The notes below the pieces were generated by a model. It ran no database searches and was not told where the DNA came from. It saw nothing but the letters and a program-made list of their open reading frames with translations. The position numbers were made by a program, and so were the translations under genes. Of a stretch of DNA of 64,000 bases, positions 40,369 through 64,000 are shown in pieces (within the stretch, counting starts at the first letter, position 1; every line of letters begins with the position of its first letter). The stretch is from Eledone cirrhosa. Taxonomy: Eukaryota. The stretch is from the NCBI GenBank assembly GCA_964016885.1, contig OZ024743.1:86490001-86554000 (forward strand), read 5' to 3'.

Positions 40369-40628
40369 TACAATATATTAATAAATGGAAACTATATTTA
40401 TAAAACCATATTTATTTTATTATACATATTTCAAGGGCCACCAAGGCAAATTATGGTGCACTTTCATCAGATAAAATACAGATTTGGTTTATAATTTGCC
40501 TTGGTGGCCCTTGAAATATGTATAATAAAATAAATATGGTTTTATAAATATAGTTTCCATTTATTAATATATTGTGTATTTACTCCACTAATCTGTTGAA
40601 TCCCAACAAATTAAATATAACCTCTGCA
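40369..40628. mobile_element. ORF-less fold-back pLTR mini-element (AT-rich hammerhead family)
   Basis: Inverted arms 40371-40454 and 40491-40574, then family tail, then (AT)n. Homologous to copies at 50248, 51468, 61051 and 63798. Confidence 0.8.
40413..40478 (-). ncRNA. Type I hammerhead ribozyme
   Basis: Minus: TATTTTAT-CTGATGA-AAGTGCACCA..TGGTGGCCCTT-GAA-ATATGTAT-A-ATAAAATA. Confidence 0.85.
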
Positions 40629-41018
40629 TATATATATATATATGTGTGTGTGTGTATGTATATGTATATATATATATATATATATATATATATATATATA
40701 TATATATATATATATATATATATATATATATATATATATGTATGTATATGTATATATATGTATATATATATATATATGTATGTATGTATATGTATGTATA
40801 TATGTATATATGAATGTATATATATATATATATATATATATATATATATATATATATATATATATATATATATATATATATATATATGTATGTATGTATG
40901 TATATGTATGTATATATATGTATGTATATGTATATATATATGTATGTATAACTACTCCATTACCAAAGGTTTCTGGATCCTAGACGATATACGTCTGGAT
41001 CGGTCATGTTATAACATC

Positions 41019-41084
41019 TCTGTCTGACGACCGATCCAGACGTATTTTAATATTGTGTCAGATCCAGAAACCTTTGGTAATGGA
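41019..41084 (+). ncRNA. Type I hammerhead (diverged helix II) preceded by an inverted partial copy at 40948-41008
   Basis: TCTGT-CTGACGA-CCGATC..GATCCA-GAA-ACCTTTGGT-A-ATGGA; related to 59990-60067. Confidence 0.68.
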
Positions 41085-41633
41085 ATAGTTATATTTTGTG
41101 TTATTCACTTTCTAATTAATTATATATGTATATATATGTGTGTGTGTGTATGTATATATATATATATATATATATATATATATATATATATATATATATA
41201 TATATATATATGTGTGTGTGTGTGTGTGTGTGAGTGTGTATATATATATATATATATGTGTGTGTATATATATATATATATATGTGTGTGTATATATATA
41301 TATATATATGTGTGTATATATATGTGTGTATATATATATATGTGTGTGTCTATATATATATATGTATATATATGTGTGTGTGTGTGTATATATATATATA
41401 TGTGTGTATGTATATATATATATATATGTATGTGTGTGTATGTATATATATGTGTATGTATATATATGTACATATATATATATATGTATATATATATGCA
41501 TATATACATATATATATATGTATATATATATTTATATGTATATATATATATGTATATATATATATGTATATATATATACATATATATATATATGTAAAAG
41601 AACCCAAAGAATGCTCACATACTCAAACAGTTT

Positions 41634-41692
41634 TTATTTGCTTACAATGTTTCATCCATACCGTTGGGTAGGAATCATCAGAGCTTAATAAA
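41634..41692 (-). ncRNA. Type I hammerhead ribozyme
   Basis: Minus: GCT-CTGATGA-TTCCTACC-CAAC-GGTATGGAT-GAA-ACATTGT-A-AGC-AAATAAAA. Confidence 0.8.
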
Positions 41693-42890
41693 CACAGTGC
41701 TGAGTATAAGCTCTACCAAGCTTAGTCACACGAACAATCGGAATACAACAGAGGGCAAAGATGGGGAGATCGGAGATGGCGAACAAGGAGAGAGTACATG
41801 CTGGGGTCGTTAAGCACCACAGCTAAATGCTAGGGCACAAGCAGATCTCACAAGATGCAGATACAATTGATGGCACACAAAATCAAAAAATACAAACAAG
41901 AGTTAAAACATAATAAAGAAGTAAAAGGAAGATAATATAAAGAGATAAAAAGTGAATAAAAGTGAATCAAAAGGTAAAAGATTTTAAAAAAATCTTTTTA
42001 AAAATAAGTGAAAAAAGAAAGAAGAAAAAAGAAAAAAAAGAAAAAATAGAGAGTTTTAAGCACATAAAAAAGCCAGAGGAATTTAAGTGCTGGTCCCTAT
42101 ATAAGTGAATAGGGTCTCAGTAACTTATAGTTATATAAGCACTAATATGTTCTGAAGGTACATCCAGAAAGACCACAGTAATTAAAATCCCCTCCATGGT
42201 ACACATATACAAGGTATACTGATAGGTACCTGAATTACGTAGCCCCAGGGTGCTCCACAAGCACATAGACAGGCAACACATAAATGCAAGCTATACATAA
42301 GCGAAGTGGGTTATTACAGAATAGAGCAGAGTATAACAAGTATATAGACAGGCACTACAAATAAAACAAGCAGAGCGGGTTACTATAAGATAGAGCTGCA
42401 GCAATAGCCCCACAATATTATTTCAGTTACTGTAAAACCAACTGGCAAAGTGTTACCACACATGTATATTAACCGTATAGGCTAGACCAATCGGCCACAT
42501 ATGTCCCGATTGTCTAGGGGTTATATAGAAATAGGATTGTCATTAGAAAACCAATCAGTCTAAATTATACACATATGTAGATCGTTCAAAAGTAAAAATA
42601 GTCACGAACATGTCAAAAACAATTCCTGGTAAAAGCGGCAGCACGTGGGTAAACAATCTATACAAAACAGAAAAGGAAATAACACAAAGTGCCCATGTCA
42701 TTAAATCAACCGGGTACCCCAGCATTCCTGCTAGGTGGGGTCAAACCCAAACATGTATACAGATATTATATAAGACAGCTTACATACCCCGTATTTATAA
42801 ATCTGGCTCTAAATAACATTACCTCGTTCATCGCCGCTAAAGGTATTAAAAATGCACATCTATTGATGACATTTTCAGTCATCAAATAAT

Positions 42891-43076
42891 AATTGTTTCT
42901 ACTTTTGGCACAAGGCCAGAAATTATTCCAGTGTATTACTGGTACTTTATTTTATCGACCCCGTAAGGATGAAAGGCAAAGTTAACCTCGGCGGGATTTG
43001 AACTCAGAATGGCAAGGGCCGTAACTCAATGCGTCAAAGCATGGCGTCCGACCCTCTACCGATACTGCCAATCTAC
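42891..43076 (-). mobile_element. Full-length SINE with 18-bp TSD
   Basis: TSD CAGTCATCAAATAATAAT at 42876-42893 and 43077-43094. Confidence 0.92.
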
Positions 43077-43680
43077 CAGTCATCAAATAATAATGACGTA
43101 AAATTGGTAAATAAAGGGGGATTACTATAATTTATCATCTATAGGGTTATTTAATTCGGACTGCAAACAAAATAAAAATAAGTAGAAAAAATAATATTTA
43201 ATCACCGACAGAACCTCAACTAATTCGACAAATTCGTACTAATTGTTATCAAATATTAATGAACCTGCAGCATTGTCGAGAGTATCACACTAAAGACTAC
43301 TAAAACTCGGTTACTATATGAAAAGTCGATAAGTCCGACGGTAGCATTACCTGTACCAATAGGGGAGTGTTCTAACAGGAGCAAAGATTTAAACTCTACG
43401 GTAAAGGGAACTCACAAATTCCTAAGGTGCAAGCCCGGTGTTCTCAATCCCGGTATGACCTGTATGTATTACCAAGGGTGGGGAGTGGGAAGTGTATGCA
43501 ATTTCCGCATTAGGGAGGGTTCAACTATTTAACTATATACGCCCAAATGGGTCTGTGGGACTAAGTCTAATGGGGCGAGTCGTGGAATTACCTTCCTCGT
43601 AATAGTAATAAGTTGTTATGAATGATCCAATATAATTCGTCAACAATATTAAGGACGTTTCGTAACTATCTAAAATCATA

Positions 43681-61789: not shown

Positions 61790-61895
61790 TACGTTAATCC
61801 GGGTTGAATCGGAGGTAACCACAGTAAGTAAGGTACTCAATACATTGCAGAGTATAAACAGTACTAGTCCTGTAGAATCTCATCTATATTAAAAC
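61790..61895. mobile_element. Rearranged tail of the 35388 pLTR family
   Basis: 61790-61860 is the reverse complement of 35453-35522; 61864-61895 matches 35422-35454. Confidence 0.75.
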
Positions 61896-61932
61896 TATAT
61901 ATATATATAACACCAATCAAACCCCTTTTATA

Positions 61933-61977
61933 GCTCTGACGAATCCTACGGTTACGTAAGGAAGTAACATTGTAAGC
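61933..61977 (+). ncRNA. Degenerate hammerhead (GAAA to GTAA), related to 41634
   Basis: GCT-CTGACGA-ATCCTACG-GTTA-CGTAAGGAA-GTA-ACATTGT-A-AGC-CAATAAAA. Confidence 0.6.
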
Positions 61978-62605
61978 CAATAAAAATCTTTTGATGTTGT
62001 AGACGCTCTTGTGTTCTTTATCACATGTATATATATATATATATACATATATATGTATATATATATATATATATAAATAGACATATATATGTATATATAT
62101 ATATATATACATATATATGTATATATATATATACATATATATGTATATATATATGTATATATATCTGGTAAGATCTGGGTCATCGCTTGCTACATTGGAT
62201 GTCGAAAGATAATCGTCCCCAGGCAGGCCAAAGGTCAATCCGCAGTCCTCGCGACCCCTCTCTGACCGTCAGATCATCCATATACGTACAACCCGCACCG
62301 CAGTTGCAATGCATTCACTCACTGCGCTCAGCAGCCCGGTCCTACTGGTCAACAGCGCTACTCGATTAAATCATTTTACATCTGTCTAAGGAAGGTGTTT
62401 CCTCTGCCCAACACTATCCAACCGATCAATTCATGCTCAAATTACCCTTAGAGCGGTGTAGTGCCGTTCAAGTGGGTGGATGTTGTCACACCTGCCGTAG
62501 AGGTATAAATGGGTATTTTCCCTGCGAAGGGTTCCGGAGGGATGTCGTTGTTTGTGTTATAAAGGATCAGCTAGTGTTGGGTATATATATATAATGAAGG
62601 AAATA

Positions 62606-62801
62606 TATAACGAAGGAATTGTGGTAAGGAACCAGATGGACCATAACGCACCAGAGTACTCAATACTTAGGGTAGTAGAGTAGGTAATAGGAAAAAGAAT
62701 GACCCCAACGGCAGAGCACAAGCCGTTTCGACGGCTATTTCTGGACTCCAGAAATAGCCATCGAAACGGCTTGAGCTCTGCCGTCGAGGTCATTTTTTTT
62801 T
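62606..62801. mobile_element. Fold-back pLTR fragment: hairpin 62692-62801 of two hammerhead 3' halves
   Basis: Centre TCTGGA-C-TCCAGA at 62746; arm GAAA-CGGC-TTGAGCTCT-GCCGTC-GAGG. Confidence 0.8.
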
Positions 62802-63839
62802 CAATATATATATATATATATACACACACACACACACACACACACACACACAAATACATACTTATACGCACACATACATTTATATGTGTATGTGTGAACC
62901 TGTACAGACACAAAAAAATATACACCTGGGCTGGTGATAAAAAACCATACACAAACGCACACACACACACACACATACACACATACTGCATACAAAATAC
63001 TTCAAAAGCAGCAAAAGAAGGGGGAGACAGAGGCTTATTGCTGGCGAAACAAACCAAAATGAGAGAGAGAATAAAAAGTGAGAGAGTGTAAAGATAGAGA
63101 CAGAGTGAAAGAGAAGGGGAGAGAGTAAAAAGGGAGAGAGAAAGTAAAGATAGAGAGAGTAAAGAGAGAGAGTGAAAGAGTAAAGAGGAGGAGAAAGAGA
63201 AATTGCAGGTGGGTGAATCAAATGAGAATGAATGAGAGAGAAAGACTGACAGTTTGAGAGAAAGAGAAAGAGAGAAAGACAGACAGTGAGAGAGAGATAA
63301 AGAGAAAGAAAGAGAGTGAGATAAAGACAGACAGACTGACAGTGTGAGAGAAAGAGAAAGAGAGAGAAAGACAGACAGTGAGAGAGAGAGATAAAGAGAG
63401 TGAGAGATGGTTATTAAAAGAGAAGGTTGTAAGGAGGAAGAGAGGCGATAAGTGTTAAGAAAACAAAACAGTGACAGTGGAAAAGTGGAGTTAAAGACGA
63501 AACATGTACAGTTCTACATCACACCTGAGTGTCGACTATAAACTGTTTCAAATCCAAAACAGGTGAGTCTATATACTTATATATATATATATATATATAT
63601 ATATATAATTTTTTATATTGTTTTTGTAAAAAACGATATTTCTTATATATATATATATATATATATATACTCTTTTTTATATATATATACATATATATAC
63701 ATATATAACTTTTTATATTATTTTTGTAAAAAACGATATTTCTTTCTTTTATATATATATATATATATATATATATATATATATATATATATATACACGA
63801 TATATTAACAAATGGAAACTATATTTATAAAACCATATT

Positions 63840-63904
63840 TATTTCATTATACATATTTCAAGGACACCAAGTTAAATTATGGTGTGCTTTCATCAGATAA
63901 AATA
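63840..63904 (-). ncRNA. Type I hammerhead ribozyme (AT-rich family, element 63798-63978)
   Basis: Minus: TATTTTAT-CTGATGA-AAGCACACCAT..TTGGTGTCCTT-GAA-ATATGTAT-A-ATGAAATA. Confidence 0.85.
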
Positions 63905-64000
63905 TAATATAGATCAGTTTTATAAATAAATATTGACATACCCTTAAAAGAATGCGACCATTTCTGTTGGAAGCTCCCATATATATATATATATATATAT

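Follow-up and report, generated by a model that had tools for sequence, protein, structure and literature searches.

Inverted, 5'-truncated hammerhead repeats in Eledone cirrhosa as probable ends of a Penelope-like element

We analysed a window of 64,000 nucleotides from Eledone cirrhosa (GenBank assembly GCA_964016885.1, contig OZ024743.1, positions 86,490,001 to 86,554,000 of the forward strand), in which an AT-rich hammerhead repeat, here called family 1, occurs as five insertions (copies A to E; Table 1) with nine arms, seven full hammerhead cores and four tails. Most likely these insertions are ends of a Penelope-like element (PLE). With a probability of roughly 0.7, the five copies are 5'-truncated 3' ends of such an element, composed of a pseudo-long terminal repeat (pLTR) with a type I hammerhead motif and a tail, and the element probably belongs to the Hydra clade. 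Clade membership is drawn from the target, the context and the tail hairpin, not from a protein of family 1 itself.

The layout carries this assignment. PLE insertions have been described in which a 5'-truncated copy lies inverted next to the element and one end bears a tail (PMC8557442; PMC3846280), the same inverted-copy pattern is given in a curation guide (PMC8969392), and hammerhead pairs 100-700 bp apart on opposite strands were considered probable products of truncated PLEs (Cervera and de la Pena 2014, PMC4209133). Because family 1 has this published layout, and a sister family (family 2) shows it attached to a PLE open reading frame (ORF), we read family 1 as PLE ends. An earlier reading of the window from its letters alone (the sequence-only reading) had proposed a distinct, retro-mobilised ribozyme element that looks like a miniature inverted-repeat transposable element (MITE) but is not one. 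Its distinctness did not hold, since the layout is already known for PLEs. Retro-mobilisation is supported by 5'-polar truncation, unequal ends, copy-specific junctions and arms grouping by copy, and the distinction from MITEs by these junctions and by ends that differ by the tail in all four fold-backs.

The five copies had been placed at 40369, 50248, 51468, 61051 and 63798, four of them as fold-backs and all without an ORF. All were located there, copies A, B, C and D are each a head-to-head pair of arms, copy E is single-armed, PLE-protein similarity was found by tblastn in 0 of the 9 arms, and the text given for the tail ends matches the sequence. For the copy at 51468 the place was right but the extent was not: it really covers 51467-52867, and a 942-bp insert, a second full hammerhead and the fourth tail in the window had been overlooked. 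BLAST of the copies against the window gave an extra family 1 match at 52639-52867, which is the right arm of copy C, separated from its own start by the insert; its tail ends in AACTTTTGC(AT)n. In copy B, the spacer continues the long (left) arm, as a contig from a second, independent sample spans 50590-50702.

In the ribozyme sense, family 1 has two fixed 3' ends, a short end and a tail end about 90-100 nt further, and variable 5' ends. The 3' ends nearly always meet a TA or AC microsatellite. Of the 10 ends of the five copies, TA runs stand directly at 8, (AC)n and then (TA)n at one, and a short AT run at one, and in run X8 TA runs adjoin the short end in 5,856 and 1,245 reads. Within (TA)n, target-site duplications are unreadable at these copies. 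All four fold-backs have unequal termini, with the tail on one arm only. The arms within a copy differ at 1/92 (A), 6/315 (B), 0/135 (C) and 2/86 (D) positions (97.7-100% identity), while the identity between copies is 81-94.8%; these are pairwise local values, and a difference table and tree partly built on a misaligned core were not relied on. Arms are thus closer within copies than between them, as had been claimed (0-2.3% against at least 5.2% divergence), and in the identity table they group by copy, not left with left. This grouping, together with the copy-specific junctions, the unequal ends and the 5'-polar truncation, makes it likely that the palindromes formed at insertion, as the sequence-only reading suggested. 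The sequence-only reading took family 1 to be actively mobilised, but at an arm divergence of 0-2% it is recent at best, and copy C has been interrupted since its insertion.

A breakpoint common to the fold-backs had been claimed as well, and it exists in two of the four, copies A (40491) and D (61253), where the long and the short arm have the 4 nt ATAA of hammerhead loop II in common. It does not extend to the tails, which lie on opposite arms, nor to the reads, in which 0 of 15 listed strand-switch joints (of 19) fall in loop II, a weak test as loop II maps poorly. The junction arose twice, since A and D represent separate subfamilies, do not share the end point of the long arm and differ in which arm is tailed, the short one in A and the long one in D. 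Given also the scattered read breakpoints, it looks like a recurring 4-nt microhomology.

The full core CUGAnGA...GAAA was found in seven arms (40470-, 50437-, 51122+, 51567-, 52676+, 61238- and 63896-, with the strand as sign), and two further arms contain the hammerhead 3' half alone. Each full arm runs through helix I, CUGAnGA, helix II, GAAA, a 2-bp helix III, an AUA triplet and helix I again, and the type I features (CUGAnGA, GAAA and an NUH cleavage triplet, here AUA) are present in 7 of 7 full arms. A structural descriptor gave 6 sites in the window, 5 of them in family 1, whereas 200 shuffles gave 0.015 sites on average and never more than 1; both copy C arms fail it through a helix II mismatch. 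The claimed covariation of helix II was recovered: three helix II pairs (AU/GC at II.2, GC/AU at II.5, CG/UA at II.6) and one helix I pair (AU/GU/GC at I.2) are compensated between copies. For five of the seven full arms (copy C arms are left out owing to MAFFT misalignment), 95 of 95 cells pair, 3 of 19 pairs are changed on both sides and slid controls pair at 41-52%; the covariation score, which reflects few independent events in about two subfamilies and is inflated by relatedness, was reached by 4 of 500 shuffles.

The helix III stretch is self-complementary (AUAUGUAU or AUAUAUAU). PLE hammerheads with a short palindromic helix III are inefficient in cleavage unless they dimerise (Cervera and de la Pena 2014, PMC4209133), and from its 2-bp helix III and self-complementary loop AUAUGUAU, the family 1 hammerhead is predicted to need company, i.e. 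it would cleave as a dimer or with protein help. Self-cleavage appears not to set the insertion ends, because 0 of 9 arms begin at the predicted cleavage site; no loose read end was found at 50387/8 among 24 listed of 449 rows.

Compared with known elements, family 1 shares with Hydra-clade PLEs, which insert at (TA)n, carry hammerheads and include Hydra-1_Obim from Octopus bimaculoides (PMC8557442), the (TA)n targets, the inverted 5'-truncated copy, the tail at one end and a sense hammerhead about 100-200 nt from the 3' end. It differs from them in A-U/U-A pairs of helix III, the AUA cleavage triplet, the A-U closing pair of helix II and the tail of about 90-100 nt, and its hammerhead sequence is not that of the Hydra-1_oBim listing. 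The minimal or type I hammerheads of PLEs (PMC4209133) likewise have a short palindromic helix III suiting dimers, dispersed copies, opposite-strand pairs 100-700 bp apart and covariation between families, whereas family 1 stands apart by its long helix I (8+6 bp), which is bulged, by a C-C mismatch inside its 9-bp helix II and by the lack of a G10.1-C11.1 pair.

Just past the short end, families 1, 2 and 3 carry a predicted hairpin made of ACTC, a stem of 3-4 bp with its loop, a TT bulge and GAGT, in which the inner stems vary yet pair (CAG/CTG, CAA/TTG, TGC/GTA, TAC/GTA). The exact pattern, which was chosen post hoc, has 5 matches in the window against 0.65 expected (0 of 100 shuffles), all of them 62-88 nt before a microsatellite, and a looser descriptor has 7 matches against a mean of 1.1 and a maximum of 5. 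By eye, a GCTC/GAGC version is contained in 2 of 6 published Hydra consensi (Hydra-2_Amil and Hydra-2_Ajap; PMC8557442), with a related form in Hydra-1_Crog and none in 3 of the 6. The words "hairpin", "stem-loop" and "twin" are absent from the main text of that paper (Craig et al.), and the hairpin has no apparent description in the literature searched, outside which lie subscription journals and most supplement figures of PMC8557442. As a model, the tail hairpin may help to set the start of copying.

Four of the 10 listed read runs were compared with 50247-50908 at 80% likeness. In whole-sample contigs of run X1, the summed depth, which is not copy number, is 3.4 million just 3' of the ribozyme and 0.84 million in the tail, while it is 26 thousand at 50500-50522 and 0.4-3.2 thousand in the spacer far upstream. 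The reads point to a very high copy number of family 1; scaling 5 insertions in 64 kb to 1.39 Gb of contigs gives a rough estimate of 100,000 copies, taken from one window only. Strand-switch joints occur at 50316, 50318, 50403, 50453, 50484, 50489 and elsewhere, of which those at 50316 and 50318 may be the non-overlapping type of pair within family 1, their direction being ambiguous. In run X5, which is labelled as another organism, 63 contigs match family 1.

Several short features surround the ribozyme. A 6-bp hairpin lies upstream of it, at the drop in read depth (50475-50495, 51044-51066, 51622-51645), with the stems CAACCA/TGGTTG in the right arm of B, CAACTT/AAGTTG in C and CAACCG/CGGTTG in a loose end of X5. 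The motif G/GTATGT is conserved about 50 nt upstream of the core (50476-50482, 51068-51074, 51609-51615, 63936-63942) and is a possible splice donor. A 20-nt stretch around CCATATTTATT is common to families 1 and 2 (35358-35385, 50365-50391; 6 of 1000 shuffles); it belongs to the deepest-covered part of family 1, has opposite orientations relative to the ribozyme in the two families, and may derive from an extended helix I in an ancestor, of which it would be the two strands, or else be a TATA-like element that works in both directions.

To consider how the inverted arms arise, 10 inverted pairs found by hand were compared: 4 of family 1, 2 of family 2, 3 of family 3 (whose ribozyme identity is not established) and 1 of family 4. 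Exactly one arm is tailed in 10 of 10 pairs, the shorter one in 5, the longer one in 3 and one of two roughly equal arms in 2. Two pairs (61790-61898 and 28558-28672) have non-overlapping arms; in each pair one arm contains the tail only and the other lies upstream of it. Non-overlapping arms, which two priming events can yield but a fold-back copy cannot, and a single tail per pair make twin priming from one uncleaved RNA the preferred explanation; its chief competitor is fold-back self-priming. In this process, the reverse transcriptase (RT)/GIY-YIG protein of the element would nick both strands of a (TA)n target, and two cDNAs would be primed on one uncleaved RNA, from the far end of the tail and from the short end, with the bulged hairpin just past the short end as a candidate RT-binding or start-site element. 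Synthesis of both cDNAs would break off early, frequently within or close to the folded ribozyme, after which a few complementary bases (ATAA/TTAT in A and D) would connect their 3' ends. For arms that overlap, the RNA would have to serve as template two times, through strand displacement or as tandem units.

The PAc protein of Poseidon cuts and extends both strands, with two start sites that bracket the tail; it is predicted to dimerise, and ribozyme cleavage is not needed (Frangieh et al., PMC11167929). The origin of PLE inverted repeats and one-sided tails has been called open (PMC8557442). A bolder and rather doubtful extension is that Hydra-clade PLEs of coral, sea cucumber and this genome share an undescribed RCTC-stem-loop-stem-NN-GAGY hairpin which would recruit RT and set two start sites, that a dimeric enzyme with one site per strand would force one tail per pair, and that family 1 would be a hammerhead short interspersed nuclear element (SINE) of about 100,000 copies exploiting this signal in trans.

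In L1 elements, twin-priming inversions have an inverted segment, a microhomology joint and two priming events, with non-overlapping arms and poly(A) ends. Family 1 is similar in its microhomology-joined inversion and two proposed priming events, but most of its arms overlap and end at two fixed internal start sites.

Fold-back self-priming, either of cDNA or on an antisense template, with staggered resolution leaving one tail, would concern the same element and is possible though less probable than twin priming. It accounts directly for near-identical overlapping arms and for B, D and family 4, in which the longer arm is the tailed one, and fold-back on an antisense template was proposed by Arkhipova et al. 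2013 (PMC3846280); besides failing on the two non-overlapping pairs 61790-61898 and 28558-28672, it requires an extra trimming step for the 5 of 10 pairs whose tail is on the shorter arm. Equally tentative is another master copy with the same insertion chemistry: a PLE pLTR would have given rise to a short non-autonomous element, either SINE-like or a dispersed retrozyme, which a Hydra-clade protein would mobilise in trans. The lack of an ORF in 9 of 9 arms and the fall in depth from core to far upstream agree with it, and both non-autonomous PLE derivatives (PMC8557442) and tandem retrozymes derived from pLTRs (bioRxiv 2026.07.22.740005) have been described. The non-LTR retrozymes (bioRxiv 10.64898/2026.07.22.740005) resemble family 1 as non-coding type I hammerhead elements akin to PLE pLTRs, but they form head-to-tail tandem units, which are found in 0 of 5 family 1 copies, these being single or head-to-head with variable 5' ends. 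Moreover, the depth drop is confounded by subfamily divergence, as it coincides with diverged loose ends at 50491, where truncation and divergence are inseparable; arm B extends at least 460 nt upstream through repeated sequence; and with a 3-kb gap between ORF and ribozyme in family 2, truncation should by itself yield short copies that lack an ORF.

A DNA transposon (MITE or foldback element) with long terminal inverted repeats, which captured a hammerhead and was homogenised by gene conversion, is largely refuted and very improbable. Such elements are likewise short, non-coding, palindromic, TA-flanked and of high copy number, TA flanks are compatible with a TA target duplication, and A and D have a junction in common. 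Family 1 nevertheless departs from them in its 5'-polar truncation and in an RNA fold conserved under selection; the two termini of a copy are unequal by about 90 nt; A/D, B and C each have their own junction; by identity, an arm belongs with the other arm of its copy; the tails of A and D sit on opposite arms; and E has one arm only. Even more remote is a fold-back artefact of assembly or library. Palindromes within microsatellites are hard to assemble and the junctions of the four fold-backs are not bridged in the read runs compared, yet the arms differ by mutations and by the tail, one arm of copy C was later interrupted by an insert, and strand-switch joints of family 1 are seen in independent Illumina data.

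Several observations weigh against family 1 being Hydra-type PLE ends inserted by twin priming. No ORF is linked to family 1 within the window copies, and for an ORF-end-like frame (TFKH, then a stop) on the 5' margin of arm B, shuffles do as well too often for significance (470 of 1000 overall, 158 of 2000 edge-anchored). The tail of about 90-100 nt compares with 30-40 bp in published elements, and at about 460 nt the non-coding stretch upstream exceeds that of the published Hydra consensi examined. As for the ribozyme, two pairs of helix II are broken in copy C, A-U closes helix II where G-C is usual, folding z-scores are weak (+0.48 to -1.75), and an Rfam search at E<=10 of 50240-52880, which holds four full cores, gave no hammerhead match, nor was one among 150 listed of 226 Rfam matches for the window. 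The hairpin is degraded in copies A and D and at 58177 and absent from the family 4 tail. Both clearly non-overlapping pairs come from sister families, not from family 1, and the fall in depth of about 1000-fold toward the upstream part fits a short non-autonomous element too.

Table 1. Positions of family 1 arms and of neighbouring features in the window
Feature	Positions	Strand	Remarks
Copy A, long arm	40366..40494	-	full hammerhead 40413-40478; short 3' end; without full tail
Copy A, short arm	40491..40627	+	starts with ATAA in loop II (4-nt microhomology); hammerhead 3' half; internally deleted tail, then (AT)n
Copy B, long arm	50248..50908	-	tail 50248-50340 adjoining (AC)n; hammerhead 50380-50445; about 460 nt upstream, AT-rich, including the spacer
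Copy B, short arm	50909..51220	+	full hammerhead 51114-51179; short 3' end, then (AT)n
Copy C, left arm	51467..51664	-	full hammerhead, variant CUGAGGA, A-A at II.1; short 3' end
Copy C, right arm, 5' part	51662..51700	+	
Insert in copy C	51701..52642	+	later; 942 bp; 37-bp tandem array, 3' hairpin, CTAG end; between A and T
Copy C, right arm, 3' part	52643..52867	+	full hammerhead, core at 52676; tail including a bulged hairpin (52782-52800), then (AT)n
Copy D, long arm	61051..61256	-	tail; full hammerhead, core at 61238
Copy D, short arm	61253..61333	+	starts with ATAA in loop II; short 3' end, then (TA)n
Copy E	63796..63980	-	single arm; full hammerhead, core at 63896; short 3' end; (TA)n on both sides
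PLE ORF	53758..56426	+	longest; near-full-length, frameshifted, Hydra-type; RWK, DKT, CxCx5C, C-terminal endonuclease
Family 2 insertion	28700..35520		RT-GIY-YIG 3' fragment 31897-33084 (-); hammerhead-like core 28762; inverted 5'-truncated copy 33086-35520
Family 2 mini-insertion	61790..61898		tail-only arm inverted relative to non-overlapping upstream arm; 7-nt microhomology

Four PLE ORF remnants were detected in the window by tblastn with four RT relatives. The motifs RWK, DKT and CxCx5C, which characterise Hydra-clade PLEs (Craig et al. 2021, PMC8557442), are present in the ORF neighbouring family 1; an ORF linked to family 1 itself was not found. The protein relatives comprise 13 matches, 3 of them named, from Octopus sinensis and Argonauta hians, which points to an octopod host. 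Pfam searches on 7 ORF pieces gave only a sub-threshold GIY-YIG match (E 0.0013) in 1 of the 7, and the Rfam matches listed for the window were microRNA models at microsatellites or palindromes; neither was retained. Pattern scans of metagenome, viral and prokaryote contigs had no match, these non-eukaryotic collections being uninformative on relatives. In the large family 2 insertion, the arms have 3 differences over a 570-nt stretch, and the tail of about 70 nt is on the inverted arm only; its 3' untranslated region, including a 2-kb AT/GT microsatellite-like tract, was copied into both arms. Family 3 has inverted pairs at 28558-28672, 58113-58325 and 62608-62805, which are truncated 10-30 nt upstream of CGAAAC and have one tail each.

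Hammerhead-like cores of at least 3 other families lie at 40947-41120, 60000, 41681, 40274, 44436 and 50102, one of them a fold-back in (TA)n. Two PLE ORFs contain low-complexity inserts rich in N, T, R and G in the RT-endonuclease linker (55190-55600, 38600-38860), resembling the N-rich inserts reported in rotifer Penelopes (PMC3846280). Upstream of the Hydra-type ORF, GCTCCAG-N8-CTGAGGTG occurs at 53648-53672, and by eye the tail of the published Hydra-1_Crog consensus has the same arrangement, which fits the idea that the next unit begins with the tail. A 23-kb satellite at 1-23222 has a 14-bp unit in 1661 copies with 89% matches. The insert in copy C is presumably Helitron-like, judged by its hairpin and CTAG end, and its terminal motifs recur in the window, with ends at 24996, 47243 and 46532.

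Family 1 thus belongs to a class known already, the debris of PLEs, and the risk of taking such debris for MITEs is relevant to repeat annotation in (TA)n-rich genomes. A very high-copy family with two fixed ends would allow twin priming to be tested against self-priming by counts of junction types, and a candidate cis-element common to the Hydra clade would supply a defined RNA element for mutation in vitro.

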